DNA of 64,000 nucleotides from an uncultured Myxococcales bacterium (GCA_964626565.1 CAZVFX010000020.1:6152-70151); one strand, 5' to 3'; counted from the stretch's first letter, positions 27,193 to 44,024 are shown. The notes: generated by a model from the sequence alone, not told the origin. Program-made: numbers and translations.

Positions 27193-30100
27193 ATGGAGAA
27201 GAAGGAACAGGCAGGGCTTCACGACCGGCAACTACTGTTCGGCGTGTTGTGCATTCAGGCGGGCTTCCTGAAGCCTGAGCAGTTCCTCGAAGAAGCCGCA
27301 GCCTGGGCAGTCGATCCCTCACGGCCCCTTGTGAAACGCCTGTCGGAGCGAAAGCTCATCAGCCCCATGGACCTTGAGCTGGTGCAATCCCTCGTTGCAC
27401 GCGCGGTGATGGCACACGGAGGGGATGTGCGTGCATCCCTGGAGTCTTTCGGCGGGCAACGGGTTGTGGCCGAGTCCTTCGGCCCCTCGTTGTCCGAAGA
27501 GACCCCGTCAGAGACGTGGAACGTCTCCACCATGGGTGCCCCTCTCATGGAGCAGAAGGCGATGTCCGAGGAGACCACCGCCGAGCTTGTCGAGCCCGAC
27601 AGCATGGAGCTGGTGACCGACGAAGACGAGGGACGCTACGGATACCTCAGCCGTAGCGCGCTCTACGAACGGGAAGAGCACAGCGACACGGTGAAGACCG
27701 AAAGCGCCGAGCTGGGTCGGGGCGGCATGGGAAGGGTGCTGCTGGTCCACGACAAGTACCTGGGCCGGGACATTGCCATCAAAGAGCTACTCTATTCCGG
27801 GGGATCCACAGCCAAGGCAGGCACCCCTCGCTACGGGCCTGACTCGCCAGCTTCAGCATCCGCCAATATGATGGAGAGGTTTCTGCGCGAGGCCAGGGTT
27901 ACCGGCCAATTGGAGCACCCTTCCATCGTACCGGTCTACGAACTGGGCAGGCGACGCGACGGCACCTTGTACTACGCTATGAGATTGGTTCGGGGGAGGA
28001 CACTGGCAGAAGCAATTAACGACTGCAAATCGCTTCCTCAACGACTGATGTTGCTTTCCCACGTCGGCGACCTGTGCAACGCCATCGCTTATGCTCACAG
28101 CCGGGGAGTGATCAATCGCGACATCAAGCCCCAGAACGTGATGGTCGGGGAGTTTGGTGAAACGGTAGTCCTCGACTGGGGGCTGGCCAAGGTCGTGGGG
28201 CAGCAAGACCTGCGGCGCACCGATCTCGCCCGGAGTATTGCGGTGGTGGATGCCGGAGCCGCGGGCAAAACGGTAGCTCAGTTTCTCGGCACACCCAACT
28301 ACATGCCTCCGGAGCAGGCTTGGGGCAAACTGGAGGACGTGGACGAACGCTCCGACGTCTGGTCAATCGGCGCGGTGTTGTACGAGGTGCTCACCGGGCA
28401 ACCTCCCTTTCACGGCAGCAACGCGATGGAGATCATGGTTCGGGTGCGGGAAGGGGTTGTGGTCCCCGTCGAGGAACTGGAGCCGGACGCGCCGCCCGAC
28501 CTGGCCGCCATCGCGAACCAGTGCCTCGTAGCTTCGCGGAAGGGGCGATACCAGACCGCACGGGAAGTAGCTCACGAAATCGATCGCTATCAGTCGGGCG
28601 CCAGGGTTCACGCTTACGGCTACTCTTCCTGGGAACTGCTGAAACGGTTCATAGCCAAGAACCGTGCGCTGTCGGCCGCCGTGGGCGCCGCGTTCCTGAT
28701 CCTCATCGTCTCCACAGTTCTCATCTGGCAACAGTGGGAGATTGCCGTTGACTCAGAGCAACGGGCGGTTGCCAGCGAGGGCGAAGCACGAATAGCGCTC
28801 GGGCGGGCGGAGCAAAGCGAAGCAGAAGCGCGCACCGCAGAGGGCAAAGCCACTGAAAACGCGCGGCAGGCCAGGAAAGCGAAGGCCAGCGCGCTGCAAA
28901 ACGAGAAGGAGGCGATAGCCGCCCGGGAGCTGTCGGAAAAGAGACGCACCGAGGCGGAAGCGGAGCGCAACCGGGCCATGCAGGCGGAGGAAGAGGCTCG
29001 AATCACCCTGGCGGAGGCTTTTGTGGAGAAGAGCCTCTCCTCATCAGATCAGGGCCTGCACGCGCGTGGGGCTGCGTATGCAGCGCGCGCGTTGGAACTC
29101 ACTGAACGACCCGATGCACGGGGCCGTTTGCTGGAGTTTTCGCTGCACGCGTCATACCCGAAACTGCGCACTGTGATACCCGGTGGGGTAGGCGCGTCCG
29201 GAGGCATGGCGCTGTCTGCTGATGGAGGCAGGCTCGCGGCAGCCGCGGCCGACGGCACCATAACCGTGTTCGGCCTGGCGGAGGGCAAGGAGATTCTCCG
29301 GTTTGACGAACCTTGCGCGGTCCCTCGATCCTTGGCCTATTCCCCGGACGGCAAGACGCTGGTCGCAGGTAGTAACGACGGTCGGGTCTGTGTCCTGGAC
29401 CTGGTGCCGGGCGCGGTCCCCATATCCTTCCGGGCCCACTTCGACTCGGTGCGCACGCTTGCCTACTCGGCTGACGGAAGGGTGCTGGCCACCGCAGGAG
29501 ACGACGCCGCAGTGCGGGTCTGGGATTGCGCCCACTGGACCGAAATCTCGGCCCTGCCCAAGATCCCGGGCAAACTGTCGGCCATGTCGTTGTCCCCGGA
29601 CGGCACACTGCTGGCCACCGCGGACACAGCAGGTACGGTACGCCTTTGGACTGCCGACTCCAACGCCAAGGAACTGGCCTCTTTCGGCGGCTTTGCCGGC
29701 GGAGCGCTGAGCCTTGCCTTCGCACCGGACGGCAGCCTGCTGGCCGCCGGCGGCGCCGACCGTTCGCTCCGACTATATGACGTTGCCGGACGACGTGAGA
29801 CAATCCGGCAGGAAAACCAGGCCGGAGCTGTCTTGTCGCTGGCCTTCGGCCCCGGGGCAGCAACGCTGGCGTCCGGATGCCGTGGCGGGGCGCTCAGCCT
29901 GTGGAGCCTCAGTGGAGCTGAGCGGCCTGCCATGCTTTCCGGTCACTCGGATTCGGTGCACTCGCTGGCCTTCGCTTCTAGCGGAAATCTGGTGGCTTCC
30001 GCCGCAGGTTCAGGAGATGTCCGCCTTTGGAACCCTGCCTTGAAGAAGGAAGAGGCAAGGTTGGGCGGCCACGTTGACAAAGTATCCGCGGTCGCGTTCT

Positions 30101-31926
30101 CCCCTCTGGGAAACACTCTGGCCTCCGGTAGCGCGGATGGAACGGTGCGCCTGTGGGACGCGTTCACCGGCTTTGAAATCAGCCGGCTGCAAGGGCACGC
30201 GGGCAAGGTTTATGCAGTAGCCTTTTCCCCCGACGGTTCCAGCCTCGTATCAGGGGGAGAGGACGGCGCCACTATCTTGTGGGACATCGCGTCGGGCAGC
30301 CCCTCAGCAAGCTGGCCCGGGCCGTCGGGGAAAGTCTATGCGGTGGCGTTCTCGCCCGACGGCCGACTTGTGGCCTCCGCAGATGAGCAGGCCGTGCGCT
30401 TGCGGGACACTTCTACCCGCGCATCGCTAGCGGCATTCCGCGGACACTCAGGCAGAGTGCTTTCCCTGGCGTTTTCAACCGCCGGGCGACTGGCTTCTTC
30501 GGGTGAGGACCAGACGGTGCGCGTCTGGGACCTGGCGACTGGCAGCGAAATGAGTCGCATGGAAGGCCACCAGGGCCGGGTTTACTCAGTGGCCTTCTCC
30601 CCGGACGGACGGCGGCTCGCGTCGGGGAGCGCGGACGGCACCTTGCGGTTGTGGAATGCGACCACCGGGACAGAGACCGCAAAGCTGGAAGGCCATTCTG
30701 GAGCCGTCTATAGCGTGGGTTTCTCTCCCGACGGGCAGACAATCGCGTCGGGCGGATTCGATTCTTCGGTGCGGCTGTGGGACCTCGCCTCCGGCGCAGA
30801 AGTCGCGCGCCTCGCCCACCACCAGAGCTGGGTTCTGTCTCTGGCTTATTCGCCCGATGGAAAGAGCCTGGCGACCGCAGGCGGCGACCGAGCCATACGC
30901 TTGTGGGACACTGGAACCTCCTCCGACCGGGGATGGTTCAAAGGCCATGCCGGAAAAGCCTATTCCGTCGCGTTCTCACCTGACGGAAGGGTTCTGGCTT
31001 CGGGAGGCGGAGACCATAAGGCGAAGTTATGGGACACCGGCAGGGGGTCCGAATTGTCTTCTTTCGAGGGGCACGGCGGTAAGGTGTACGCCACCGCGTT
31101 CTCCCCTTCCGGCAACACTTTTGCATCCGCCGGTGAAGACGGCACGGTACGTATTCGTGACCTGGTGGGCGGCAAGGAGATACTCAACTTCCGGGGCGAT
31201 GACCAGTACGTATGGTCCCTCGCTTTTTCACCCGACGGGGGTACACTGGCCACTTGCGGAGGGTCCAACCTTATTCGATTGTGGGACCCTGTGTCCGGAA
31301 AAGAAAAAGCAACTCTCTCCGGCCCCCAATCCCGGGTTTGGTCCCTCGCTTTTGCTCCTGACGGCAAGACTCTGGTCTCCGGAGACGGGGAGCAGGTAAT
31401 CGCGTTGTGGGATGTCGCCACCGGAAGGGAGACCGGGCGGTTGGAAAGATGCGGAGGCGTAGTCCTCTCTTTGGCCATTTCTCCCGACGGCAAGCGCGTT
31501 GCAGCCGGCTGCATGACCGATACCGTGAAGCTGTGGGATCTTACCTCGGGCAAGGCCAAGGACATCGTCATGGGCGGAGGAAAGGTGTACTCGGTAGCCT
31601 TCGCACCCTCGGGAGATGCTCTGGCGGCCGGGTACTACGATGGTGCGATCCGGCTCTGGGACGTATTGGGCCAACGACCACTGGCCGTAATGACCAAGCA
31701 TGAAAAGGCGGTAGGCGACCTCGCTTTCTCCCCTGACGGCTCCCTCCTCGCCTCCGGCGGAGTAGACGGCCACATCGGCCTGTGGCAACTCGACAACTTG
31801 CGCATCCCCGGGCCGGAATTGGCCCATCGCATCCTCGCAGAGCACAGCCTCGCAGCCGACGGCATCGCCCTGATGCCCGACCCCGCCCGAACGTTGGGCC
31901 GCTTTGTTTGGACTGACGGCAGATAG
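27193..31926 (+). CDS. Hanks-type Ser/Thr kinase + hydrophobic helix + coiled coil + 21 WD40 repeats
   Basis: GRGGMG, IAIKE, NRDIKPQN, DWGLAK, GTPNYMPPEQ; AAVGAAFLILIVSTVLIW segment; A/E/R-rich coil; WD40 repeats counted by hand. Confidence 0.93.
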   Translation: MEKKEQAGLHDRQLLFGVLCIQAGFLKPEQFLEEAAAWAVDPSRPLVKRLSERKLISPMDLELVQSLVARAVMAHGGDVRASLESFGGQRVVAESFGPSLSEETPSETWNVSTMGAPLMEQKAMSEETTAELVEPDSMELVTDEDEGRYGYLSRSALYEREEHSDTVKTESAELGRGGMGRVLLVHDKYLGRDIAIKELLYSGGSTAKAGTPRYGPDSPASASANMMERFLREARVTGQLEHPSIVPVYELGRRRDGTLYYAMRLVRGRTLAEAINDCKSLPQRLMLLSHVGDLCNAIAYAHSRGVINRDIKPQNVMVGEFGETVVLDWGLAKVVGQQDLRRTDLARSIAVVDAGAAGKTVAQFLGTPNYMPPEQAWGKLEDVDERSDVWSIGAVLYEVLTGQPPFHGSNAMEIMVRVREGVVVPVEELEPDAPPDLAAIANQCLVASRKGRYQTAREVAHEIDRYQSGARVHAYGYSSWELLKRFIAKNRALSAAVGAAFLILIVSTVLIWQQWEIAVDSEQRAVASEGEARIALGRAEQSEAEARTAEGKATENARQARKAKASALQNEKEAIAARELSEKRRTEAEAERNRAMQAEEEARITLAEAFVEKSLSSSDQGLHARGAAYAARALELTERPDARGRLLEFSLHASYPKLRTVIPGGVGASGGMALSADGGRLAAAAADGTITVFGLAEGKEILRFDEPCAVPRSLAYSPDGKTLVAGSNDGRVCVLDLVPGAVPISFRAHFDSVRTLAYSADGRVLATAGDDAAVRVWDCAHWTEISALPKIPGKLSAMSLSPDGTLLATADTAGTVRLWTADSNAKELASFGGFAGGALSLAFAPDGSLLAAGGADRSLRLYDVAGRRETIRQENQAGAVLSLAFGPGAATLASGCRGGALSLWSLSGAERPAMLSGHSDSVHSLAFASSGNLVASAAGSGDVRLWNPALKKEEARLGGHVDKVSAVAFSPLGNTLASGSADGTVRLWDAFTGFEISRLQGHAGKVYAVAFSPDGSSLVSGGEDGATILWDIASGSPSASWPGPSGKVYAVAFSPDGRLVASADEQAVRLRDTSTRASLAAFRGHSGRVLSLAFSTAGRLASSGEDQTVRVWDLATGSEMSRMEGHQGRVYSVAFSPDGRRLASGSADGTLRLWNATTGTETAKLEGHSGAVYSVGFSPDGQTIASGGFDSSVRLWDLASGAEVARLAHHQSWVLSLAYSPDGKSLATAGGDRAIRLWDTGTSSDRGWFKGHAGKAYSVAFSPDGRVLASGGGDHKAKLWDTGRGSELSSFEGHGGKVYATAFSPSGNTFASAGEDGTVRIRDLVGGKEILNFRGDDQYVWSLAFSPDGGTLATCGGSNLIRLWDPVSGKEKATLSGPQSRVWSLAFAPDGKTLVSGDGEQVIALWDVATGRETGRLERCGGVVLSLAISPDGKRVAAGCMTDTVKLWDLTSGKAKDIVMGGGKVYSVAFAPSGDALAAGYYDGAIRLWDVLGQRPLAVMTKHEKAVGDLAFSPDGSLLASGGVDGHIGLWQLDNLRIPGPELAHRILAEHSLAADGIALMPDPARTLGRFVWTDGR

Positions 31927-31932
31927 CCGTCC

Positions 31933-34038
31933 CTAAGGATCCGCCTCAACCGGCGGTTCGCCCTGAACCACTTTGTAGCGGTGGTTGCCGGCTACCTGGA
32001 ACTGCTGGATGGTGAGGTCCTGGTCGGGCCAGCGGATGGTTACTTCAGCCAGGCATTCGTCGCCCAGGCCGAAGTGCTGGACAAAGTCCCGCTGCGTGCC
32101 GAAATGCCCGTGGCCGCCGTCTACTTCCCACTTGCGGGTGACACCGTCCGGAGTGGCCACTGATATTTGCGCCCCGATGGCGGAACGGTTGGAGCCGTCG
32201 GCCCCCTCAACACTGATCTGCAGCCAGTTGCCCGCATCACCCAGGATGTTCTCGAACAAACGCACCTGCAACGTCTCGTAACAGTCGTCCAGGTACTGGC
32301 CGCCGCACCGCATCTTGGAGTGCCCCACCAGCACGTCCAGGTCTCCGTCGCGGTCAAAGTCCGCCGCGGTGACGCCGTGGTTTCTCAAATGCTCAAAAAA
32401 GTCCTCTGTGCCTACCTCCAGGAACGTCTCCGCCGATTCCTGGTGATACAAGTGGGCGAGGGTGTACGGGTAGTCGGAGGAAGCGACGTGAATGTCCAGC
32501 CAACCGTCGTTGTCGAAGTCAAACACCGTGTTGGTCATGTCACCATCATCCCACACCGGCCCGGGCTCCCCGTCCCCGTTGATGTCCGGGTGCAATTTGG
32601 TAAGCCCTGTAACCTCATTCCCCGGCCGCTCGAACCTCACGTCCGCTTCACCGGTGTTCACCACCAACTCCGCCGGGTCGGAACTGGAGCCCACATCCCA
32701 GTGCACAATTTCGCCGGTCATCAGGTCGATGAACCCGTCGTTGTTCACATCCGCACAGGTGGTGGTCGCGCTGTTGCCGGCCAAACGCCACGGCTCCCGG
32801 TCTGTCGCATGATTCCAGCGGAACGCATCCGCATCCACCTGACACTTGATCCACGTGGGCCCCGGCACACCCTCGCACTCATCATCTTCAGGGTGCAGCT
32901 TGCACCAGCACTGGGCCGACTCGTTGTCGCTCCAGTCCATTCGGTCGTCGTAGGCGTAACCGGAGTACACGGACACATTCTCGTAAGTAACCGAACCCGA
33001 CTTTCCGGACACCCCCTGCCACAGATGATTGGGGCACCTTCCATACGATGCGGTTAGCAACTCAGGCACGCCGTCATTGTTCAGGTCACACGCGGTAGAC
33101 CCCCACGCCCACGAATGGCCCAGCCCATTATTGAGATTGTCGGGCGGCAGCAGCCACGGCTTCGTTTCGATTCCGGTCTGTTTGGAGACATCGGTGAAAG
33201 CCCCGGTACCATCCCCCTTGAACAGCTTGTCCGGAAGCGGCTGGTTCGTGCCGCCCACCATGTTGTTTACCGTCCAGATATCAAGGAACCCATCCCTGTC
33301 GAAATCCACCAGCGTGACTCCTGCCGGCACCGTGTACATCCCTTCCTGCCGGTATCCGTTCTCCTGCGGCCCCAGCGAAAAAGTGCCGTCGCCGTTGTTC
33401 AGGAACACTTCAGAGGTTTCGATCACGGTTTTAGGATCGTGAACTGTATTCGCCATCACGAAATCCACATCGCCGTCGTTGTCCAGGTCCCCGGCCGCGA
33501 GCACTTCACCCGGTCGACCCAGAGTGTCGTCGGTTCCATACCTCGTCTGCACAATGCCCGACGCTTGTGTAGCGTCTTCGAATTTCCCCGTCCCCGTATT
33601 GCGCAGCAACCAGAACGACCTGTCGCCACCGGGAGAAAAATCATCCACGCCGCCGCCCCAACGAACAATCAAGTCGGTCCAGCCGTCGCCGTCGTAGTCG
33701 GTCGCGTTGATCCGGAAGCCCTGCACCGCAATGTCGATGAGCCCCCACTCCGCAGTGACTTCCTTGAAGATCTTTACCCCGGGAGACCAGAGGGTTCCCG
33801 GGTTGGGCGTGCACTCCACAGGCGGAGGCCCAACGTCGGCCTCGACCTCTGCCGGGAGGACATCGTCCGGATCCACCACGTCCGCGGGTTCGATGTCACT
33901 CGAGTCGACATCGCCAGGTTGGGTGGACGCGTCGGGAGACGAAGACTCCGGGGTCACGTCCGACGCCTCCCCACCATCGCCGTTGCCGCAGGAAGCAGCC
34001 CAGATCACTACAAACAACAAGAGTGACAACTGTTTCAT
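31933..34038 (-). CDS. CRTAC1-family lipoprotein (FG-GAP repeats + ASPIC/UnbV)
   Basis: Lipobox AASC; DYDGDG, DLDNDGDVD, DFDRDG, DVNNDG, DFDNDG loops; C-terminal VDGGHGHFGTQ...HFGLG. Confidence 0.88.
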   Translation of the reverse strand: MKQLSLLLFVVIWAASCGNGDGGEASDVTPESSSPDASTQPGDVDSSDIEPADVVDPDDVLPAEVEADVGPPPVECTPNPGTLWSPGVKIFKEVTAEWGLIDIAVQGFRINATDYDGDGWTDLIVRWGGGVDDFSPGGDRSFWLLRNTGTGKFEDATQASGIVQTRYGTDDTLGRPGEVLAAGDLDNDGDVDFVMANTVHDPKTVIETSEVFLNNGDGTFSLGPQENGYRQEGMYTVPAGVTLVDFDRDGFLDIWTVNNMVGGTNQPLPDKLFKGDGTGAFTDVSKQTGIETKPWLLPPDNLNNGLGHSWAWGSTACDLNNDGVPELLTASYGRCPNHLWQGVSGKSGSVTYENVSVYSGYAYDDRMDWSDNESAQCWCKLHPEDDECEGVPGPTWIKCQVDADAFRWNHATDREPWRLAGNSATTTCADVNNDGFIDLMTGEIVHWDVGSSSDPAELVVNTGEADVRFERPGNEVTGLTKLHPDINGDGEPGPVWDDGDMTNTVFDFDNDGWLDIHVASSDYPYTLAHLYHQESAETFLEVGTEDFFEHLRNHGVTAADFDRDGDLDVLVGHSKMRCGGQYLDDCYETLQVRLFENILGDAGNWLQISVEGADGSNRSAIGAQISVATPDGVTRKWEVDGGHGHFGTQRDFVQHFGLGDECLAEVTIRWPDQDLTIQQFQVAGNHRYKVVQGEPPVEADP

Positions 34039-34057: not shown

Positions 34058-35230
34058 TTAGATCGATCCCATCTCGCCCGGCCCGTCCAGCGCTTCCTCG
34101 TCGTGCGCCGGTCCGTCCTTGTAGTCTGCTTCGCCTAATTCCGGATGCTCAATGGCGGGGATGTAGCGACGATAGAGCCTGGAGCCGGCATGGAGCACGA
34201 ACAAGGGGATGGCGACAAAGTAGGCCGCGTAGTTGGCCAATGAGACCAGGTAGTAGGAAAGGTCTGAATAGCTTCCCGCCATGCCGGCCGCCCAGGGCAT
34301 CACCACGTTGGCTTCTGCCGTGTATACAATGCAGTTCCACAAGATGATGGCGATGCAACAGTAGTTCAGCGTGATATTGCCTAAGACGCTGGCTGCATGG
34401 GTCCACTTGAACCCGCTGGATCGATTATCGGAAAACGGCCAGAAAAGCACTGACCCAAGCACCCCGAACTGGTCCACGAAAGTGTGCCCCCAGAATGACA
34501 GGGTAATGATGCCGAACAGGGTCAATGCCATGGGTGCCGTAAACGCTGCCGCCCCCGCGCCGGACATCGCCCCGAACAGCGCGTAAATCAGATAACCGAG
34601 AACACCGCAAAGCAGGCCCACGAAGGGACTGTGCGCCCAGGTGCGGTGCCAGGGGATGAAGTCCATTCGGACGTAGTCATCCACCGGCACGAACGAAAAA
34701 TCGGGGCCGGAGAAGATGGCTACCTCGGTCTTGGCGTGGTACGGATTGTTCATCTTCGCTTTGAAGGGCGCCTCGGCGTACAGTTGCTCCTTGGGAACAT
34801 CGGGGAGCGACCGGGGCAGATGCCCGCCGCCGCCCATGGTCTGGCCCATGGTCTTCAGCGGCCCGATCTGCGCGATCACCTTCCTGTTTTCCTGGTCGAT
34901 GCGAATGGAGTAGGTGCGATGATAGTTGGCCGACACTTTCAACGTGTGGAGTTTGACTCGCACAGTCTTCTGTTGGTCGGCCGCCTCATCCACCGCTTTC
35001 GCCACCAACTCCGCAATGGGCCGGGCATCCAGATTGTCCAGGTCCGGAGTCACCGTGTATTCGTGCTTCCACAGGTAACGGCAGATGCGAAAATCCAAGG
35101 TGTCGGGAAGCAGGCCGAAAGCGCCTCCCGCCAGCAGGATAAAGGAGTTTTCCTCCAGGGTCGCCCGCATCGCTTCGGGGAAACAGGTTGCCACCGCCAT
35201 TCCGGTGAGGAAATGTCCGATTCCTTTCAT
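34058..35230 (-). CDS. YdjM-like membrane metal-dependent hydrolase with soluble insertion
   Basis: GGAGGT RBS before ATG 35230; GHF, LLPDTLDF, WHRTWAHS, GHTFVDQFG, LFWPF; about 120-aa insert between PD and HR motifs. Confidence 0.8.
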   Translation of the reverse strand: MKGIGHFLTGMAVATCFPEAMRATLEENSFILLAGGAFGLLPDTLDFRICRYLWKHEYTVTPDLDNLDARPIAELVAKAVDEAADQQKTVRVKLHTLKVSANYHRTYSIRIDQENRKVIAQIGPLKTMGQTMGGGGHLPRSLPDVPKEQLYAEAPFKAKMNNPYHAKTEVAIFSGPDFSFVPVDDYVRMDFIPWHRTWAHSPFVGLLCGVLGYLIYALFGAMSGAGAAAFTAPMALTLFGIITLSFWGHTFVDQFGVLGSVLFWPFSDNRSSGFKWTHAASVLGNITLNYCCIAIILWNCIVYTAEANVVMPWAAGMAGSYSDLSYYLVSLANYAAYFVAIPLFVLHAGSRLYRRYIPAIEHPELGEADYKDGPAHDEEALDGPGEMGSI

Positions 35231-35241
35231 TTCTCCACCTC

Positions 35242-36582
35242 CTACAAGAAGCCGAGCCAGCGGGCCACATCGGGCCCGAAGCCGGACATATTCAAGCACA
35301 TTGGAACAAGAAGGCAGGCCAGCAGATTGATGCGCCGGCTATGCCACAAATTGGGAACCATGCCGATCACCGTGGACACCGCAAGGATGATGAGACCCTG
35401 CCAACTGGTGATCGCAGCTACCAGTCCGATCATGATGATCATGCCGAAAAACGAAATCCACTTGTAGTTGATCTTCCTGGCGATCCAGATAGCCATGCGA
35501 GAGTACCAGAAAACCAGGAGGAACGAAATGGCTCCGGTGAGCACGATGATACCGGCGATGCTGAGGAACTGGGCGTAGGTCTCCGGTACAAAGAAGAGGC
35601 TGATGTTGATGGCAGCCCCACCCCGGCGCAGGAACACGCCGGGCATGAAGAAGAAGAGCAGGGTGCCGACGTAATACATCACCCTTCCTGCACCGCCTCC
35701 GATAATGAACTGCCGGTCGCCGCCGGTTACCGTGGCATGCCCGGTGAGCAGTAAGGCCGGACCCGGCGTAATCGCTGGCGTGAAGCCGGCGAAGATCCCC
35801 GCCAACAGACCCGACGCGCTGCCTCGCACCACGTCCTCGGTATACAACTCCACCGACTTGGCCACGTGTTGCGGCGGATTCTTCACCGTGGCCAGCAGAG
35901 TCAAGAGCTGGCTCGGAATGGCGAACAACCCCACAAACACCGGCATCAGCGACTGGAAGGTCGCGTCGGTGGGGATGATGGTACGATAGAAAATGAACAT
36001 GCCCAGAAGACTCGCCAGCGCGAAACTTACGTAGCCCATACAGATGGGGATCCACCCATCCAGGATTCGTTTCAGCGCCGTAGGCGCGGTGCCCGGGTCT
36101 TTGGGCCACTCAGTCATGAGCAGAAACACGATCACCGCACCGGCAATCCAGTACAGGTGCGGCCGCAGCAGGTCCCTGAAAAACACGGCCACCGGCTGAC
36201 CAAAGGTAGGGAAGAAAAGGCCGATTACCAGAATCGCCACCAGCGAGCCCACGGAACCCAGAATCACAGCCTCATGCCCCCGCCGCTCGTATAGGAATTT
36301 CTCATGCGGCAACATGATATATCGATACGAATCATCACACGGCTGGAAGAACTGTGACGAGATGGTGAACAAGAGCGAAAAACCCACCACCAACCCGATG
36401 AGGAACGAAGTCAGCAGCATCGGGTCCAGCCCCGAGAAGAAGTGATACACCGCAAACACAATGGTCATGGTGATCGCAATGACGTTGTAGATGTGCAAGC
36501 CCGGAATAAGTGAGGCGATCGCGGAAATCCCTACCCCCACCAGAGCCAGCACAATACTCATGAACAAGAGGCTAAGTTCCAT
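35242..36582 (-). CDS. DUF112 / archaeal-type TctA-family multi-pass membrane protein
   Basis: SLIPGLHIYNV and MLPHEKFLYERRGHEAVILGSVGS resemble the DUF112 signature; many TMs; TAATG coupling to upstream gene. Confidence 0.75.
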   Translation of the reverse strand: MELSLLFMSIVLALVGVGISAIASLIPGLHIYNVIAITMTIVFAVYHFFSGLDPMLLTSFLIGLVVGFSLLFTISSQFFQPCDDSYRYIMLPHEKFLYERRGHEAVILGSVGSLVAILVIGLFFPTFGQPVAVFFRDLLRPHLYWIAGAVIVFLLMTEWPKDPGTAPTALKRILDGWIPICMGYVSFALASLLGMFIFYRTIIPTDATFQSLMPVFVGLFAIPSQLLTLLATVKNPPQHVAKSVELYTEDVVRGSASGLLAGIFAGFTPAITPGPALLLTGHATVTGGDRQFIIGGGAGRVMYYVGTLLFFFMPGVFLRRGGAAINISLFFVPETYAQFLSIAGIIVLTGAISFLLVFWYSRMAIWIARKINYKWISFFGMIIMIGLVAAITSWQGLIILAVSTVIGMVPNLWHSRRINLLACLLVPMCLNMSGFGPDVARWLGFL

Positions 36583-37166
36583 TACTCACCTCCCTTGTCG
36601 TCGGGGGGCATCGTCGGCGCACCGGCTGGGATTATCTCCAACATCGAACTTGTGTTGACGGTCAGGAGTTGAAAACCCTTCCCTGCGTGAAAAGTGCCTT
36701 CAACATTCACCAGATCTCCCTTTACCGGCACCCGCTTCTCCTGCTCCAGGGTGTAGTAGATTGGGCCCTCTACCTTCACCTTCAGGCCGAACTTGTTCGC
36801 TTCCGTGCCGTCGGAAAGCCAGAAAGTGTAGATGTCCGACGCCTTGTAAGGAGTCCGGACCATCTGCGTCTTGGTGACCTTTCCTTCCACCCGGAAGTGC
36901 TGGAATGCATCCTTCACATCCAGATCAGATATCTTCGCCACCGGCGAGCCGACCATCCCGGCTGCAACCAGGAGCACCACTCCCAGCGCGAGGATGAATA
37001 ACGCGCATTTCATGAGCGTCGTTTCCTTGACCCGCTTGTCCGGGGATGTCGCGCTGCAGCAGTAGTAGCACACCTCCACCGGCTCAATGGACGCACCGCA
37101 ACTCGGACAGGGCAACAATCCCCCACCCCCGCCGTGCGCACCGCCTTCTGCTTTGGATTCCTGCAT
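36582..37166 (-). CDS. Zn-ribbon + single TM + OB-fold protein
   Basis: CPSC...CYYCC, TM, then RVEGKV...FWLSDGT...GDLVNVEG OB-fold pattern. Confidence 0.72.
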   Translation of the reverse strand: MQESKAEGGAHGGGGGLLPCPSCGASIEPVEVCYYCCSATSPDKRVKETTLMKCALFILALGVVLLVAAGMVGSPVAKISDLDVKDAFQHFRVEGKVTKTQMVRTPYKASDIYTFWLSDGTEANKFGLKVKVEGPIYYTLEQEKRVPVKGDLVNVEGTFHAGKGFQLLTVNTSSMLEIIPAGAPTMPPDDKGGE

Positions 37167-37187
37167 ATTGTTCTCCGCTCGTAGCAG

Positions 37188-38141
37188 CTACTTTCTCAGT
37201 TCCAAAATCTCGATTTCTCCGGGGTCCGCCAGATGCAGCCGCCACCCCTTGGCGAAACTTGAATCCTGGTAGCGCAAGGCACCCGTCACGCTGATTCGCG
37301 CGCCGTTGGGAGGCGCACCTCCCCACTCCAGGTCTGTCGGCAGGATCGCACCAGCCAACTCCAGCACAGTCCACGGGATAACCACATCGAGGTTGGCCCA
37401 CCTGCCGTCGATCTTACCCGCTGACAATCTGATCTTGGCTTCGTAGTTCTTGTAGGTCTTGCCGTCTTTCTTCTTACCTTCCCTCCGGACGTAGTTTCGG
37501 TACACCTTGCCAACCACCCGGACCCGATCGAATTCGTTGAAGTCGTCCCTTCCCGCGGTCGCAATCTCCCGGGGCCTGTAGTCAGCCAGGGGAGGCGGCC
37601 GTGTGATGGTCAACTCTTCGGGAGCCCCAACGATGAGCGAGTGACGGTGCATGCGGATCTGGAAGTTCCCCATCACATGCACCCGATCTCCTACCGCCGG
37701 GATCTTGCCCGCCTTGACGATGCGCCGGGTCGCGTCCTCGTAGGTCTTCACCCGGGTACGTGCACTGCCGTCGTCAAGACAGAATTGCAGAGTGCCCGCA
37801 GTGGGGTCGTCAGAGCCGGAAGCATGATAGAGCCGGGGAGTGTCGCAAACGACCCCTTCCAACTGGACGTAGGCAAAATTGCTCTGCTCTGTCAGAGACG
37901 CCACCTTCACCAGGGGATTCCCGATGGTCTTGCCCAGATGCGCCAACACAAAAATGCCGATAATCCCAATAATCGGAGACGCATACTTGGTCACCCGGAG
38001 GATCATCCGCTTGTTGTGATGCGCGCGGCAGTAGGGGCAGAACTCCAAGGGTCCCACATACCGCTTGCACTTCGGGCAGTTGGTGTAGTCGTTTGAATGG
38101 CTTAGGGTGTAAGGCTCAATTCCGGGCGGTGGGCCGGTCAT
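37188..38141 (-). CDS. Zn-ribbon + single TM + two OB-fold domains
   Basis: GGAGGT RBS before ATG 38141; CPKC...CPYC, TM, VQLEGVV...LDDGS...GDRVHVMG and RVRVVGKV...GARISVTG. Confidence 0.72.
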   Translation of the reverse strand: MTGPPPGIEPYTLSHSNDYTNCPKCKRYVGPLEFCPYCRAHHNKRMILRVTKYASPIIGIIGIFVLAHLGKTIGNPLVKVASLTEQSNFAYVQLEGVVCDTPRLYHASGSDDPTAGTLQFCLDDGSARTRVKTYEDATRRIVKAGKIPAVGDRVHVMGNFQIRMHRHSLIVGAPEELTITRPPPLADYRPREIATAGRDDFNEFDRVRVVGKVYRNYVRREGKKKDGKTYKNYEAKIRLSAGKIDGRWANLDVVIPWTVLELAGAILPTDLEWGGAPPNGARISVTGALRYQDSSFAKGWRLHLADPGEIEILELRK

Positions 38142-38242
38142 GCCAGCTACCTCCATCATATGAATCAGGGATCAGAAAGGCCTTTCGAGTACAACAGGCA
38201 GCAGGTACAAAGTCAAGGACTTCCGTGTGCGCGCCCGCGGAC

Positions 38243-38271
38243 TTGAATCGAGGGCCGGAAGTTGCCATTAT
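38243..38271 (+). promoter_or_regulatory. Candidate sigma70 promoter of the B12-rSAM/LuxEC operon
   Basis: TTGAAT-N17-CATTAT with extended -10 TG at 38263-38264. Confidence 0.5.
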
Positions 38272-38300
38272 CATCACTGATCGCAACGGAGGCTACTGCC

Positions 38301-39953
38301 TTGAACACAATGTTGCTCCACGTGCCGAAACTGGAGGACTACTACCTCCCGTTCGGCCGTTACATGAACGTCAACTACATGCCCATGGGGCTCCTTGGCC
38401 TGGCCCGACATTTGAAGCAGAACGGGCACGATGTAGAGGTGCTCCACGCAGGCGTCGAGAAGATACTCGACCCGGACTGGCGCATTGCTGATGAGATCGC
38501 CGATTTGGACGTAAAGGCGGTAGGCTTGACGCTGTTCTGGCACTACCAATCCTACGACGTCGCCCAGGCGATCCGCCGCCTGAAACAGGCCCGGCCCGAC
38601 CTCTTCATCTTCCTGGGCGGCATCACCGCATCATACTTCGCCGACGATATTCTGAAGACCCTGCCTGAAGCCGACGCAGTGGTGATGGGCGAAGGGTTCG
38701 ATTCGACCTTAGGGCTGCTGGCCGGACTGGAAGCCGGCGGTGATCTCTCCGGAGTCCCCAACCTGGTGTGGCGCCGCGCCGGAAAGGTAGTGGTCAATCC
38801 CGACCGCCTGCAGCATCCCCAGCAACTGTTCGACAGCCTCTCCTTTGCCGATTTCTCCCCCATGCGGCACCACGACACCTACATCCGACAATTCGGTTTC
38901 CCCCTGGCCTACTCCTGGGAACGAACGCCGGAAGAAAACCGGCAGTTGATGACCATGGGACGCAGTTTCTTTCCTCTGTATGTCGGCAGCGGCTGCAACA
39001 CAGCGTGCTCTTACTGCTGTGGCAACACGGCCACGTTGAAACGAATTAACGGCGGCCACCGCCTCATGTGGCGCTCCCACGACGCGGTGTTGCGCGATGT
39101 AAAAACCGCTCTGGACTTTGGCTATCGCACCATGGCGCTGTGCTTCGACCCCATCCCCGGCACCGGGCCCTATTATGCCGAGCTGTTCCGCCGCTGGAAG
39201 AAGGAGACCCCCGAGGCCGACTTGTACTTCGAATGCTGGGGCTTGCCCGAACCCGATTTTGTGACTGCGTTTGCCGATTGCTTCGAGCCGCCCCATTCAT
39301 ACCTGGCGCTCTCCCCCGACTCTGGAAGCGAGATGGTCCGCCGCAAAAACAAGGGCAATTTTTACACCAACAGCCAGTTCTTCGAGTGTGCGGACAGTCT
39401 CGTGCAGCACGACATCCAGATGGACGTCTTCTTCTCCCTCGGCTTTCCCGGGGAAAACATCGCCCGGGCGCTGGAGACCCGGGACATGATCCGCAAGGTC
39501 TCCGACGGCTACCCCAACGTGCGCAGACTCATGACCTGGGCGGTGCAGTTGGAGCCGGGCTCACTTCAGTTCGAGAATCCCGATCATTGGGGCATCGTCA
39601 CCAACCGAAAGACTTTTGACGATTACGTCAACCTCCACGGATCCCGCGGCGACGCCTACTCGATCCTGGGCTACAAGATCCGGGACTTCTTCGGCGATGA
39701 GCGGGATCATTGCTCCATCGAAGAATTCGAGGAGCATTTCCAGCATTTCAAGTGCATGGAATTCTGCTTTCTTAGCAAGGACCCCCGGGTGTATAATGAT
39801 CCCGGAATGGGACGGGCGGAGTGCCTCCGGCGGCGCGACGCTCTGGCCGGGCGACGGGGGGCGGAATCGCCGACTCAAGAGATCAGCGCAACCTATAGCT
39901 GCCGGCAGGCGACGGGGGACGAACGCCCCCGGACTCCCCGGGTAGAGATATGA
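38301..39953 (+). CDS. Cobalamin-binding radical SAM enzyme
   Basis: GGAGG RBS before TTG 38301; B12 domain (PMGLLGLA, GGITAS, GEG); CNTACSYC; SPDSGSE; FSLGFPGE. Confidence 0.9.
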   Translation: MNTMLLHVPKLEDYYLPFGRYMNVNYMPMGLLGLARHLKQNGHDVEVLHAGVEKILDPDWRIADEIADLDVKAVGLTLFWHYQSYDVAQAIRRLKQARPDLFIFLGGITASYFADDILKTLPEADAVVMGEGFDSTLGLLAGLEAGGDLSGVPNLVWRRAGKVVVNPDRLQHPQQLFDSLSFADFSPMRHHDTYIRQFGFPLAYSWERTPEENRQLMTMGRSFFPLYVGSGCNTACSYCCGNTATLKRINGGHRLMWRSHDAVLRDVKTALDFGYRTMALCFDPIPGTGPYYAELFRRWKKETPEADLYFECWGLPEPDFVTAFADCFEPPHSYLALSPDSGSEMVRRKNKGNFYTNSQFFECADSLVQHDIQMDVFFSLGFPGENIARALETRDMIRKVSDGYPNVRRLMTWAVQLEPGSLQFENPDHWGIVTNRKTFDDYVNLHGSRGDAYSILGYKIRDFFGDERDHCSIEEFEEHFQHFKCMEFCFLSKDPRVYNDPGMGRAECLRRRDALAGRRGAESPTQEISATYSCRQATGDERPRTPRVEI

Positions 39954-41143
39954 AGATAACCATCATCGATAGCACCCTGAGGGAAGGAGAACAAACGCCG
40001 GGGGTGGCCTTTACCGCCGAGGAGAAGGTGGAGATAGTTCGCCTGCTTGCCGACGCAGGCGTGACCCACTTCGACGCAGCCACTGCGGAGTCCTCCGACG
40101 AGGATGCGCACTTCATTGCCATGGCCATGGACCAGGTGCCGGACGTCAAGTTGGGAGTAAGCTGCCGGTTGCGGCCGTCAGCACTACGCCTGGCCGCCGC
40201 CACCGGGGCCGCAGACCTGTTCGTGATCGTCCCCACCAGCGACATTCACCTTGAGAAACGGCTGCGCATGAGCCAATCGGACCTGCTCGAAGAATTGACC
40301 GGTGCCATCGCGGACAGGCCCGACCCGTGTCCGCGGATCAACATCGCGCTGGAAGATGCATTTCGCACTACCCCATATTTCATCCTGCAATGCATCGAAA
40401 AAGCCCTCGAAGCCGGGGCGACCCGATTCTTCGTCTCGGACACCGTGGGCACCACAACTCCCCGCGGAGTGCGCAGGATGGTGCGCACCGTGATGAGCGA
40501 ATTCCGCGACAGAATCGAACTGGGCACCCACTTCCACAACGACTTCGGCCTGGCCACCGCCAACACCCTGGCCGCCCTAGAGGAGGGAGCCACCCTTCCC
40601 ACCGCATCGGTAAATGGCCTCGGCGAAAGGGCCGGTATCGCTGACCTCGCTCAGGTTGCGGCCTCAGCCAGGAAGCTGCTCGGCGCGACCCACACGGTTC
40701 GCCTTGACCGGATGCGGGCCGTAAGCACGCAACTCGCCCGCCTCACCGGGATAACGGTCTCTCAAAACTCCCCCATCACCGGTCACAACGCGTTCCAGCA
40801 CACCTCCGGAATCCACGTCCACGGTATGCTTATCGATCCCGCCACCTACGAGGCGTTGGACGGCCAGTGCTTCGGTGCAAAGACGGAGTTGATACTGGGA
40901 AAACAGTCCGGCCGCCATCACCTGCGACACTTGTTGGATGAAGCAGGATTGGAGGCCCCGGACGACCTGGTGGAGGCTCTGCTCCAGCAGGTCAAGGCAG
41001 AGGCCGCCAACCCGCGCCGCCGAGAAGCGCTGCGCGCTTTCTCGGATCGTTTCGACGACCTCAACAAAAGAGTGCTGCCAGTGGACTGGAGTCTGCTGCT
41101 GGAGTGGCTGAAACGACGGGCAGGCAAAACCACGGAGAGTTGA
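39950..41143 (+). CDS. Homocitrate/isopropylmalate-synthase-like DRE-TIM enzyme without regulatory domain
   Basis: DSTLREGEQ, SDTVG, HFHNDFGLATAN, NGLGERAG, HTSGIHVHG, LGKQSGR. Confidence 0.88.
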   Translation: MKITIIDSTLREGEQTPGVAFTAEEKVEIVRLLADAGVTHFDAATAESSDEDAHFIAMAMDQVPDVKLGVSCRLRPSALRLAAATGAADLFVIVPTSDIHLEKRLRMSQSDLLEELTGAIADRPDPCPRINIALEDAFRTTPYFILQCIEKALEAGATRFFVSDTVGTTTPRGVRRMVRTVMSEFRDRIELGTHFHNDFGLATANTLAALEEGATLPTASVNGLGERAGIADLAQVAASARKLLGATHTVRLDRMRAVSTQLARLTGITVSQNSPITGHNAFQHTSGIHVHGMLIDPATYEALDGQCFGAKTELILGKQSGRHHLRHLLDEAGLEAPDDLVEALLQQVKAEAANPRRREALRAFSDRFDDLNKRVLPVDWSLLLEWLKRRAGKTTES

Positions 41144-41144
41144 C

Positions 41145-42314
41145 TTGACGCTGTTCGACAACATCTGGAGCGGACACTGCACCGGAAAGAAGGACGGCGT
41201 CTACGAACAGTTGCGCGTCGACCTCGTCTATGGTCACGAAGGGACGTTGGCCCTCTGCCTTGAACAACTGAAGAAATATGACGGGCCCAAAATGGCCCCG
41301 GAACAGCTCTTCTTTGTGGTGGACCATTTCTCTCCGCCCTCCTCCGGCCCCTTCGCCGACATCGTCCGCGATCTTTCCACCTTCTGCTCCCAGCGGCAGA
41401 TTTCGCTCCGGATGCACGAGGGGATCGGGCACCGGCTCATGCTGGAAGACGAAAGAGTGCAGCCGGGCATGCTGGTCGTCGGCGCGGATTCCCACACGAC
41501 CACCATCGGCGGCAAAGGGGCGCTGGGGATAGGCCTTGGCTCTTCCGACGTCCTCGCCGTGCTCATGACCGGCACCGTGTGGCTGAAACGCCCCCCGGTG
41601 GCCGCAGTGCGCCTGCATGGAGAACTGCCCCCGGGGGTGGAGGCCAAGGACGCAGTACTCCAACTGCTGGCCGACCACGGCCAGGGCGGCTTCCTCGGTG
41701 AAGTTGTTGAATATCAGGACGACTCCACTGCCGGACTCGCGCTCGAACAGCGGGCCGTGTTGACCAACATGTGCGTGGAAATGGGCGCAGTATCGGCCCT
41801 GGTAAGCAATTGCACCCCCGACGGCTCCGCGCGCAAACTCGATCTCGACCTGTCGGGACTTTCGCCTCTGGTAGCGCGCCCCGGGGCTCCCGATAATGTG
41901 ACACCCGCGAAACAACTTGGCGACGTGACAATAGACACCGCCATGGTGGGCTCTTGCGCCGCGGGTGGATTGTCGGATCTGGAGACCGCAGCCAGACTCC
42001 TTGCCGGGCGCAAGGTCGCGCCGGGCACCAACCTGCTGGTCACCCCCGCAACCAGGCGGATACTTATAACAGCAGTTGAAAAAGGGATCATCTCGACCTT
42101 GCTTGAAGCCGGCGCAGTCTTGCTCAATCCGTCCTGCGGCGCCTGCGGCGGCATCGACAAGGGGATCCCCGCAGTGGGAGAAACGGTAATCACAACCGCA
42201 CCCCGAAACTACGGCTCCAGGGCGCGGGTCGGCTCCAAGGTCTACCTGGCCTCTACCGCCACCACCGTAGCCAGCGCGTTGGCAGGCACCATTTGCCCGG
42301 GCGGAGGGTCGTGA
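41145..42314 (+). CDS. Two-subunit aconitase-family dehydratase, large subunit (LeuC/HacA-like)
   Basis: VVDH, GIGH, GADSHTTT, three cluster Cys (GSC, SCGAC), TAPRNY. Confidence 0.88.
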   Translation: MTLFDNIWSGHCTGKKDGVYEQLRVDLVYGHEGTLALCLEQLKKYDGPKMAPEQLFFVVDHFSPPSSGPFADIVRDLSTFCSQRQISLRMHEGIGHRLMLEDERVQPGMLVVGADSHTTTIGGKGALGIGLGSSDVLAVLMTGTVWLKRPPVAAVRLHGELPPGVEAKDAVLQLLADHGQGGFLGEVVEYQDDSTAGLALEQRAVLTNMCVEMGAVSALVSNCTPDGSARKLDLDLSGLSPLVARPGAPDNVTPAKQLGDVTIDTAMVGSCAAGGLSDLETAARLLAGRKVAPGTNLLVTPATRRILITAVEKGIISTLLEAGAVLLNPSCGACGGIDKGIPAVGETVITTAPRNYGSRARVGSKVYLASTATTVASALAGTICPGGGS

Positions 42315-42315
42315 A

Positions 42316-42801
42316 ATGATCATCGAGGCCAGAGCACTGGTATTGGGAGACAACGTCAACACCGACCTGTTGCACCCCCCGGCATTCTACTCCACCGACG
42401 ACAAGACTGCGGCCAGGGGAGCCTTCGCCGGCCTGGACCTGGACAGAGCAGCCCTGGGCCCGCCCCCTTACGTCATACTGGCGGGGAAGAACTTCGGGTG
42501 CGGATCCAGCCGGGAGTCGACCATGAGGGCGCTGAAAACCGCCGGCCTGGTGGCCATCGCGGCGCGGTCTTTCGCCCACATCTTCCACCGCACCGCGACA
42601 AACCTGGGCGTACCAGCCCTCGTCATCCGGGGAAACCCGGTGGCAACAAAGACCGGGGCCAGCGTCGCTTTCGACTCCGAGCTGTGGACGGTACGCTTCG
42701 AAGGCGCCACAACCGTCCCACCCGAACCCTTTGAACAACAGCTACTGGCAGCCGGCGGCCTCGAGAACCTCCTCGCCGGCAAGGATTGGCAATGGGAATA
42801 G
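42316..42801 (+). CDS. Two-subunit aconitase-family dehydratase, small subunit (LeuD/HacB-like)
   Basis: GDNVNTD, AGKNFGCGSSRE, SFAHIFHR, AAGGLEN. Confidence 0.9.
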   Translation: MIIEARALVLGDNVNTDLLHPPAFYSTDDKTAARGAFAGLDLDRAALGPPPYVILAGKNFGCGSSRESTMRALKTAGLVAIAARSFAHIFHRTATNLGVPALVIRGNPVATKTGASVAFDSELWTVRFEGATTVPPEPFEQQLLAAGGLENLLAGKDWQWE

Positions 42802-44024
42802 ATACCGCACACCAGGCTCCGGCCAACTACGACGTCGCAGTAATCGGCGGCGGAGTGGCGGGGTTGAGCGCAGCGATAAGAGTCCGCTTCGTCAAGGCGA
42901 TGGAGGCGCTGCCGTTGTCGGTAGTCGTTTTCGAGTGCTCCAAGCCGGGGGGCCTCGTAAGGGTTGGTCAGCAGAGATACGTGACAGGGCCCTCCTTCAA
43001 ACTGGATGCGGACAACATTCTCGGCGACCTGATGGGAGACGTTGAGCAATATGAAATCCCCATCCTCCGCACCAGGATAACTGCTGTGGAGCAGGCGGGT
43101 AAGAAATTCGTATTGCACGGGGAAGACGGCTCCCACACCACTGCGCTCAGCGTCGTAGTAGCCACCGGCTCAAGGCCGTTGTGTAACGAGCTGGAGTTTC
43201 TGGGCGACGGCGTGTTCATCACCTACAAAGGGCTCAGTTTCCTACCGCTGATCCTCGACGAAGCGGTGAAGACCGCGGGGGGAAAGCCTGTCGCAGTGGT
43301 GACCAACCGGCGCATCGGCGCCCTGTTGCCCCTGTTTGGCAACCGGACCGCAGACTTCCTCTATCTGCTTTTTCCACCTGCGGCCGAATCGGGAGGATTG
43401 AAGATGCCGGGGAGGACCTTGGACATCGCCGGTTTTGAAGTCCGCAAAGTCGACGGCGGCTTTGAGCTGGAAGTGCGCTCGAGGTCGGGGGAGACTTCTG
43501 TGGAAAAGTGCGGCGCGGTGCTGCTGGACTACGTTTCGTTCCAAACCGAACCGTCCCTGCCTTCGCTCGACGTCCCGATCCGCCTCGGCCCCACCGGTGC
43601 GCCGGTGGTGGACTCTTTCCTGGCCAGCAGCGTCCCCGGCCTCTATTTCGCCGGTGACGTTACCTGCCGATACGCCAACACCGCGGCCGCCATTTCCGAC
43701 GGCGTCCTGGCAGGTTTCGGCGCCTACTCCCACGCCTATCGGACCCTGTTCGGCCACTCGCCGCCCCTCTTTGCATACCGGGCTCCGGAGAGCCCCGGGC
43801 AGTTCCTCGCCGGGGAATTGCCCAACCTCTCAGACGGGCATTTGATCAGGTGGCTGCAAACCCCATCCCAGGGGCACCCGCTAAGAGCCTGTGACGGCTC
43901 CACACTGGCCGAAGCTTCCCGGGACTCGGGGCTGACTGTTTCCCGGGTGAAAGACCTTGTGCTCGACGCGATCAGGGACAAACGCCTCACCGTCTACCCG
44001 CCGCAAACCTCCGGGGGAAACTGA
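42792..44024 (+). CDS. TrxB-fold FAD-binding protein lacking the redox CxxC
   Basis: IGGGVAG, VVATG, GLYFAGD; no CxxC and no second GGG motif; C-terminal extension; ATG 42792. Confidence 0.75.
   Translation: MGIDTAHQAPANYDVAVIGGGVAGLSAAIRVRFVKAMEALPLSVVVFECSKPGGLVRVGQQRYVTGPSFKLDADNILGDLMGDVEQYEIPILRTRITAVEQAGKKFVLHGEDGSHTTALSVVVATGSRPLCNELEFLGDGVFITYKGLSFLPLILDEAVKTAGGKPVAVVTNRRIGALLPLFGNRTADFLYLLFPPAAESGGLKMPGRTLDIAGFEVRKVDGGFELEVRSRSGETSVEKCGAVLLDYVSFQTEPSLPSLDVPIRLGPTGAPVVDSFLASSVPGLYFAGDVTCRYANTAAAISDGVLAGFGAYSHAYRTLFGHSPPLFAYRAPESPGQFLAGELPNLSDGHLIRWLQTPSQGHPLRACDGSTLAEASRDSGLTVSRVKDLVLDAIRDKRLTVYPPQTSGGN

Follow-up and report, generated by a model that had tools for sequence, protein, structure and literature searches.

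The 64,000-nt stretch of DNA analyzed here (hereafter the window), from an uncultured Myxococcales bacterium (GCA_964626565.1, CAZVFX010000020.1:6152-70151), carries a four-gene membrane cassette that encodes two OB-fold proteins, each with a zinc ribbon and a single transmembrane (TM) helix (A and B), a TctA-like polytopic membrane protein (C, the permease) and a YdjM-type putative hydrolase (D). With moderate confidence, we propose that this cassette serves to take up nucleic acid, doing the work of the competence translocon without ComEC and with parts that are not homologous to it.

The OB plus TctA-like core is of a kind known since 2023, when Fonseca et al. screened transposon mutants of Methanococcus maripaludis for natural transformation (PMC10133366). 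In that archaeon, MMJJ_13020 (OB fold, one TM helix) and the adjacent MMJJ_13030 (TctA family, 11 TM helices) are each essential for transformation, a requirement confirmed by in-frame deletions and complementation, and the TctA-like gene SAMN04488571_104187 of Methanoculleus thermophilus is essential as well. Because archaea lack ComEC, the TctA-like protein was proposed as the archaeal DNA transporter; a YdjM-type partner and bacterial relatives are mentioned nowhere in that paper (PMC10133366). An earlier note, made from the sequence of the window alone, had called the cassette an uncharacterised machine. This is accurate for the bacterial form, the YdjM partner and the zinc ribbons, none of which we found described, but not for the two-gene core already studied genetically in 2023. 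The literature searched contained no description of the three-gene module, its bacterial members, a YdjM partner with an insert or zinc-ribbon anchors, and no paper on this subject later than Fonseca et al. 2023.

Like the M. maripaludis pair, the window cassette combines adjacent, co-oriented genes for a single-TM protein with PF01336-type OB folds and a PF01970 TctA-like protein, with no TctB or TctC, and profile comparison places its permease in the same archaeal-type (COG1784/arCOG04469-like) family. It differs in being bacterial, in having a pair of OB paralogues, each with a zinc ribbon at its N-terminus and three OB folds between them, and in having a conserved third partner, the YdjM-type hydrolase with its inserted domain.

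Gene organization and conservation of the cassette

The four genes are closely coupled (Table 1). Gene A is separated from B by 21 nt, the stop and start codons of B and C overlap in TAATG, and 11 nt lie between C and D. A GGAG-type ribosome-binding site precedes all four genes (in gene A, GGAGGT 7 nt ahead of the ATG), and the four protein lengths recur in independent gene calls on public marine-metagenome contigs carrying the sequence. A promoter and terminator scan found no terminator-like sites between the cassette genes above shuffled-sequence expectation, and no sigma-70-like consensus in the divergent intergenic region.

Table 1. Positions of the cassette genes, their parts and the upstream intergenic region, counted from the first letter of the window
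Feature	Position (nt)	Strand	Description	Basis
Gene A	37188..38141	-	317 aa; zinc ribbon, single TM helix, two OB folds	Open reading frame and ribosome-binding site, AlphaFold2 model
A, zinc ribbon	about 38028-38078			
A, TM helix	about 37923-38012			
A, OB1	about 37602-37871			
A, OB2	about 37200-37526			
Gene B	36582..37166	-	194 aa; zinc ribbon, single TM helix, one OB fold	Paralogous to ribbon, TM helix and OB1 of A
B, zinc ribbon	about 37056-37109			
B, TM helix	about 36951-37013			
B, OB	about 36642-36914			
Gene C	35242..36582	-	446 aa; COG1784-type (archaeal-type) TctA-like polytopic membrane protein	PF01970
Gene D	34058..35230	-	390 aa; YdjM/DUF457-family membrane-bound, putatively metal-dependent hydrolase	PF04307
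D, insert	about 34646-35080		Residues about 51-195; beta-rich soluble domain	
Divergent intergenic region	38142..38261	.	120 nt upstream of A; presumed cassette promoter	Position only, inferred

To assess conservation, one genome per species (GTDB) was scanned with a profile of C relatives, which yielded 247 species-level genomes with a relative confirmed by tblastn (E <= 1e-3). The locus counts given here rest on the best 80 of the relatives' loci, which span at least 8 phyla and both domains. Bacterial loci come from Myxococcales, Wallbacteria, UBP16, Lentisphaerae, Verrucomicrobiota, Kiritimatiellae, Planctomycetota, Marinimicrobia and Anaerolineae/Thermoflexia/Chloroflexia, and archaeal loci from Thermoplasmata/DHVE2/Aciduliprofundum, Bathyarchaeota and unclassified archaea; the closest relatives of the window cassette, at 75-80% identity, belong to metagenome-assembled genomes (MAGs) of Myxococcales.

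One or more OB genes stand upstream of the permease on the same strand in 67 of the 71 loci with enough flank; in the gene maps that were drawn, they abut it in nearly all cases. A YdjM-type gene follows downstream in 54/72 loci (archaea 16/16, bacteria 38/56), and both partners are present together at 14 of 14 archaeal and 35 of 50 bacterial loci. Conversely, a reverse search from YdjM-type homologues recovered the OB-TctA-YdjM order in two of three contexts. All-against-all clustering of every open reading frame in the 80 loci revealed no other family in more than 14 of them, and Pfam scans assigned the recurrent neighbours to unrelated functions. Since the four-gene arrangement recurs in dozens of unrelated genomes with otherwise unconserved flanks, it is far beyond chance.

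More divergent forms were also detected. Beside a very distant C member on an archaeal contig, a 105-aa minimal TM plus OB protein is encoded two genes upstream. On the 175-kb plasmid pPg_03 of Pseudanabaena galeata CCNP1313, a gene for a TM protein with two OB folds (PF01336, 2e-11) lies upstream of a TctA-like gene (82858-85352). This pair, from a cultured cyanobacterium, has toxin-antitoxin genes and topA on its flanks and no YdjM gene.

The distribution of the permease was examined in a neighbour-joining (NJ) tree without bootstrap. The window sequence falls in a clade of Myxococcales, Planctomycetota, Wallbacteria and one Verrucomicrobiota/Lentisphaerae group, whose sister lineages are uncultured archaea and then Thermoplasmata/DHVE2; a second clade unites Bathyarchaeota with other Verrucomicrobiota/Kiritimatiellae and Chloroflexi. 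This interleaving of bacterial and archaeal sequences supports transfer of the cassette between the two domains. One Verrucomicrobiota MAG (CAZFSE01) holds members of both clades, with 54% and 37% identity to the window, so paralogous systems coexist in one genome; at the locus designated L076 in this MAG, two OB-permease units stand in tandem.

These results agree with most of what the earlier note had claimed for the organization of the locus. The gene coordinates and spacings from which it deduced coupling match exactly, and the census bears out the co-conservation of the genes, with OB and YdjM neighbours in bacteria and archaea. Sharing with archaea, ascribed there to horizontal transfer, is likewise found, as interleaved sequences in the unbootstrapped NJ tree. 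Its statement that similar genes cluster in Thermococcales and Anaerolineae is confirmed for Anaerolineae as carriers; Thermococcales are not represented among the best 80 loci.

Domain families and predicted topology of the components

Proteins A and B each begin with a Cys4 ribbon (CPKC-x9-CPYC at residues 22-38 of A, CPSC-x9-CYYC at residues 20-36 of B) followed by a single hydrophobic helix. In its AlphaFold2 model (pLDDT 84), protein A has a TM helix at residues 44-73 and two OB barrels. In a Foldseek search of this model against PDB, all top matches were tandem-OB nucleic-acid binders, namely RPA, Teb1, Thermus/Deinococcus SSB, HIN-200, RADX and POT1, with E from 1e-8 to 1e-6. Protein B is paralogous to the part of A comprising ribbon, TM helix and OB1 (BLASTP 1e-11), and a Pfam scan gave it a weak match (0.001) to CcmE, a membrane-anchored OB protein. 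Precomputed PF01336 matches exist on two close homologues of A, and relatives in the same position at other loci also match this family, including, at 3e-11, an OB gene that occupies the same place beside the permease as B.

To extend this analysis across the family, 94 cassette-linked OB proteins were scanned individually. PF01336 was matched by 74 of them, in up to six copies per protein, and PF13742 by 42. The DUF4131 model, which describes the TM plus OB N-terminus of ComEC, was matched by 19/94 (best 3e-8, mostly under the 31.6-bit Pfam cut-off); neither A nor B matches it in a Pfam scan. Zinc-ribbon models were matched by about 20 of the 94, and weak CcmE and BOF matches occurred in a few members. 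The OB component is plastic across loci, ranging from one to three genes and from 105 to 2,451 aa; one Chloroflexi protein contains six PF01336 domains, and Thermoplasmata encode giant surface proteins that combine PKD and OB domains.

At least four cysteines precede the TM helix in 77 of the 89 related TM-bearing OB proteins, and the 12 residues flanking the helix contain on average 3.4 K/R before it and 1.4 after it. From this charge bias and the position of the ribbons, the ribbons of A and B are predicted to be cytoplasmic and their OB folds extracytoplasmic (N-in, OB-out).

Protein C matches the PF01970 TctA model over profile positions 1-421 of 423 (1.2e-22, 80.6 bits against a gathering threshold of 28.9). 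Comparison by hhalign aligned the C family with a distant archaeal TctA-like profile at 1.3e-48, and both share the motifs IPGLHxxN, LPxxKxLxEGRGHEAV, RxGGAA and RRxN. Among 1.84 billion proteins, the same COG1784-type profile recovered no more than 2,596 representatives. On these sequence criteria, C falls in a small, separate family of archaeal COG1784-type TctA-like proteins and not with classical TctABC. Makarova et al. took the arCOG04469/COG1784 family to consist largely of putative carboxylate carriers that stand alone (PMC5898192). Neither the operon nor the flanking genes scanned in the window include a TctB or TctC, and no conserved cluster of this kind occurs in the 80 loci. Sequence and family-profile searches identified no PDB relative of C, and NCBIfam gave no meaningful match for any of the four proteins.

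Protein D matches PF04307 YdjM (1.6e-13, 51 bits against a cut-off of 29), with about 145 residues (about 51-195) inserted between profile positions of about 50 and 54. In its AlphaFold2 model (pLDDT 85.5) the insert is beta-rich and placed after the first helices (second or third). An hhalign comparison with E. coli YdjM (1.3e-6) pairs WHRTWAHS with GHRGFTHS and HTFVDQ with HILADM. The YdjM hallmark motifs are kept in D, i.e., the N-terminal H, D..D, HRxxxHS and H...D, and residues H6, D43, D46, H195, H200, H249, D253 and R270 are invariant in 41 homologues. Foldseek found no fold match for the D model in PDB (best E 0.4, GFP and C2 noise), and the insert fold is therefore left without a name; PDB sequence searches with A, C, D and the family profiles gave nothing usable and likewise detected no solved relative of either TctA or YdjM by sequence. 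Two chains of the SLC30A3 zinc antiporter, at E of about 1.3-1.4 against the D profile, were dismissed as noise. One side of D has the insert, the R270 loop, the RLYRRY C-terminal tail and the loops bearing H6, D43/D46, H195/H200 and H249/D253, and on the other side the loops contain nearly no K/R. By the positive-inside rule, the putative catalytic site and the insert of D are thus predicted to face the cytoplasm.

Several structural statements of the earlier note can be followed through these data. The Cys4 ribbon ahead of one TM helix is present in both OB proteins, and the placement of three OB folds across the membrane from the ribbons is borne out as a prediction by the ribbon position in the family and the positive-inside rule; a cytoplasmic location of the OB domains was checked, and they are predicted to be extracytoplasmic instead. 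The absence of TctB and TctC beside the DUF112 (TctA-like) protein was found for the operon and its scanned flanks, and pairing elsewhere was checked too, with no such partner co-conserved at any of the 80 loci. The large soluble insert of the hydrolase is confirmed.

Proposed nucleic-acid uptake and alternative readings

The earlier note had external OB folds capturing a polymer, whether single-stranded DNA, an oligonucleotide or a glycan. Nucleic acid is clearly favoured among these, because the OB domains belong to PF01336 and PF13742, with a weak resemblance to DUF4131 in some, and because one related locus adds a ComEA-type helix-hairpin-helix protein and an EEP nuclease. At this locus (L090:1115-6937, on an unclassified bacterial 291-kb contig), OB-TctA-YdjM is immediately preceded by two co-oriented, DNA-related genes. 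One product, of 1,433 aa, ends in a ComEA-type HHH_3 domain (2.8e-16), and the other is an Exo_endo_phos (EEP) nuclease (2e-23). It is the only such arrangement found.

We hypothesize that the module resides in the cytoplasmic membrane, where nucleic acid would be captured on the outside (in the periplasm, the host being probably a myxobacterium-like diderm) and brought into the cell whole or in pieces. A and B would each be tethered by one TM helix, with cytoplasmic ribbons and, between them, three OB folds that bind DNA outside, as a counterpart of the DUF4131 OB fold of ComEC and of the role of ComEA. C may form the membrane conduit or the engine that drives passage. D may act at the inner face on the incoming substrate, or on the membrane or the complex itself. 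Translocation by the DUF112 protein and processing by the hydrolase, both envisaged in the earlier note, are what we too infer. A part of the bacterial cassette in transformation, passage through C, DNA instead of small fragments as the substrate and any of these roles of D are accordingly put forward here as proposals.

The comparison with ComEC/Rec2 and ComEA suggests a common plan: a predicted outward OB fold after a TM helix, a polytopic membrane part and a putative metal-dependent hydrolase, together with the mostly sub-threshold DUF4131 matches among linked OB proteins and the ComEA-type HHH_3 protein beside one related cassette. In contrast, the parts of the cassette are separate genes and those of ComEC one polypeptide; the membrane part has the TctA fold; and D belongs to PF04307, not to the metallo-beta-lactamase family PF00753, and probably faces the cytoplasm. 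Homology of C to ComEC was rejected, as C has no PF03772 Pfam hit and hhalign of its family against E. coli YcaI gave a probability of 0.1%; homology of A was rejected after a negative hhalign of the A family against YcaI. As judged from the protein families, the cassette is an analogue of ComEC and not a homologue, the proposed likeness being functional only.

The TctABC system of Salmonella citrate uptake (the TTT family) resembles the cassette in the full-length match of C to the TctA Pfam model. The cassette differs in that no TctB or TctC was found at the 80 loci, in that the family of C has invariant motifs of its own, and in the partners of C, which are OB proteins and YdjM. Alternatively, the cassette could be a small-solute importer, in which C is an ordinary elevator-type carrier, the OB proteins replace TctC, and their TM helices, perhaps with D, replace TctB; the substrate would be a small anion or, in a variant, nucleotides and short oligonucleotides freed by separate nucleases, with D as a cytoplasmic phosphoesterase. 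The full-length TctA alignment, the proposal of orphan archaeal TctA proteins as carboxylate carriers (PMC5898192), the small-ligand binding of OB folds (with weak CcmE and BOF matches in a few members), the mostly acidic ectodomains and the predicted cytoplasmic active site of D all fit this explanation, and EEP and PLD-like neighbours could supply mono- or oligonucleotides. However, M. maripaludis mutants in the OB or the TctA-like gene lose plasmid transformation completely (PMC10133366), for which import of small fragments cannot account, proteins with as many as six PF01336 domains and the giant PKD plus OB proteins resemble polymer binders and not solute receptors, and metabolic genes for any particular solute are not co-conserved. 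We regard a solute importer as unlikely, while granting it the most weight among the alternatives.

Protein D shares with E. coli YdjM/YbcI and S. aureus SAOUHSC_02424 membership of the DUF457 family and the HRxxxHS and H..D motifs, and differs from them in being operon-linked to OB and TctA-like genes and in being twice as long, owing to the inserted beta-rich domain. YdjM/YbcI and SAOUHSC_02424 are LexA-regulated inner-membrane proteins of unknown function, and LexA/SOS control of family genes is known from both species (PMC6590174, PMC11442139), a recurring, unexplained and circumstantial link to DNA. The suggestion that the YdjM family are phospholipases (PMC11442139) raises a further alternative, an envelope or membrane-maintenance module in which the OB folds bind a glycan, lipid-linked polymer or protein, C flips or exports an anionic precursor and D is a phospholipase or other lipid hydrolase. 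It would suit OB as an oligonucleotide/oligosaccharide-binding fold, PLD-like neighbours that could act on lipids, and the gene for a secreted FG-GAP/ASPIC lipoprotein that lies 19 nt past D in the window. Yet the OB domains belong to nucleic-acid-binding and not carbohydrate-binding Pfam families, the FG-GAP gene and other envelope-type neighbours are not conserved, and the archaeal genetics point to DNA uptake. The envelopes of the carriers are, moreover, very different (diderm PVC, Myxococcota, Chloroflexi, wall-less Thermoplasmata, cyanobacteria), which disfavours a specific envelope polymer. We therefore consider an envelope function improbable.

The combination of nucleic-acid-binding domains with a membrane hydrolase also brings to mind anti-phage defence or a mobile element, with a membrane sensor-effector that binds invading nucleic acid and a hydrolase that damages the membrane; one relative does lie between toxin-antitoxin genes on the cyanobacterial plasmid, and another adjoins a CRISPR-associated gene. 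Nevertheless, none of the four proteins has a PADLOC match, injected phage DNA would not be encountered on the outer side to which the OB domains are predicted to face, the cassette is flanked by housekeeping genes in stable synteny and not by defence islands, and only 2 weak matches occurred among 72,556 plasmids. Defence appears very improbable to us.

Several points also weigh against nucleic-acid uptake. OB folds are known to bind sugars, haem and small ligands as well, and the ectodomains of the family are mostly acidic (median pI 5.4, net negative in 67/89); protein A, with a pI of 9.3, is basic, unlike most of them. The DUF4131 matches are for the most part sub-threshold. To our knowledge, the TctA fold is that of secondary transporters of small anions, none of which is known to pass a polymer, and we know of no YdjM family member with nuclease activity. 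As its site is predicted to be cytoplasmic, D would offer no simple equivalent of the outer nuclease of ComEC. The YdjM gene is absent beside 18 of the 56 bacterial cassettes. The haloarchaeal C relatives (24-26% identity) stand alone, as do two further distant relatives (L084 and L085) that lack OB neighbours, so OB pairing is not universal in the C family. DNA-related neighbours occur at few loci, and a scan of flanking genes in the window revealed neither pilus genes nor others for competence. Orthology to MMJJ_13020/MMJJ_13030 is presumed from family membership, architecture and gene order, and the archaeal transformation phenotype could be an indirect effect. Lastly, in the literature consulted the hydrolase activity of the YdjM family is described only as predicted, and its identity as a phospholipase is a guess (PMC11442139).

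With these points considered, we still favour a role in nucleic-acid uptake. Its fullest form would be a machine that bacteria and archaea share by interdomain transfer, that imports DNA without ComEC and has three parts: outward-facing OB arrays that feed in the DNA, a TctA-fold protein repurposed as a polymer conduit and a YdjM-family metal hydrolase that processes or gates, with a cytoplasmic domain dedicated to the task. This we advance tentatively and hold to be rather doubtful in all its parts together.

Surrounding genes and significance

In the window, the FG-GAP/ASPIC (CRTAC1-like) gene (31933-34038, minus strand) has its own GAGG site and may be co-transcribed with the cassette; the N-terminus of its product is a signal-like hydrophobic stretch ending in AASCG. 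Its adjacency was seen in 0 of the 80 related loci. On the other side, divergent from the cassette, a co-oriented run (38262-46485, plus strand) encodes a B12-binding radical SAM protein (TIGR04190-like, 1.6e-44, far below the cut-off), a homocitrate/isopropylmalate-synthase-like enzyme (HMGL-like plus HCS_D2), the large and small subunits of aconitase, an FAD oxidoreductase, a LuxE acyl-protein synthetase and a LuxC acyl-CoA reductase. Its gene content suggests biosynthesis of an unusual alkyl-organic acid or aldehyde, and no link to the cassette was found in other genomes. Both the FG-GAP gene and this operon were rejected as cassette partners because neither recurs at any related locus.

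Further genes of the window encode a 1,577-aa protein (27193-31926, plus strand) with an N-terminal Ser/Thr kinase-like region (from the translation), a hydrophobic segment, a coiled region and WD40 repeats (14 stretches matched, 8.6e-178); a deoxynucleoside kinase of nucleotide salvage (PF01712; 26262-26966, plus strand), whose proximity at about 8 kb from the cassette is probably coincidental; a 737-aa caspase-domain (Peptidase_C14) protein (46482-48695, minus strand); and a 1,126-aa GAF-PAS hybrid histidine kinase with a receiver domain (21783-25163, plus strand).

At related loci, a protein of about 1,030 aa with two PLD-like domains and CarboxypepD_reg domains is encoded downstream of the cassette in 6 cases, 3 archaeal and 3 Chloroflexi (L035:12438-15551, L047, L073, L032, L048 and L057). 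Nucleases and phospholipases both belong to the PLD superfamily, and this protein could be either, as a nuclease an extracellular one. In four loci of DHVE2 archaea (L025, L027, L028 and L033), a gene for a 433-aa HD plus HD_assoc_2 protein directly follows the YdjM gene. In four of Wallbacteria/UBP16 (L006, L007, L008 and L021), which have no adjacent YdjM, a 610-aa DnaB_C-like (RecA-fold) protein is encoded directly upstream of the OB genes.

How DNA passes the archaeal membrane in transformation is an open question, for which the methanogen OB plus TctA-like pair is so far the sole candidate. Our results place a pair of the same kind in a conserved operon of many uncultured bacteria (Myxococcota, the PVC group, Wallbacteria, Chloroflexi) and on a plasmid of a cultured cyanobacterium. 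The YdjM-type third component, nearly always present in the subfamily to which the window cassette belongs, gives a fuller parts list and might explain what the SOS-regulated YdjM family does. If the fullest form of the proposal is true, the long-sought archaeal DNA translocon would be identified as a complete operon, and the LexA/SOS-regulated YdjM/DUF457 family would gain its first function. For sediment and marine bacteria, the cassette hints that DNA may be taken up by another, second route, or that extracellular DNA may be scavenged.

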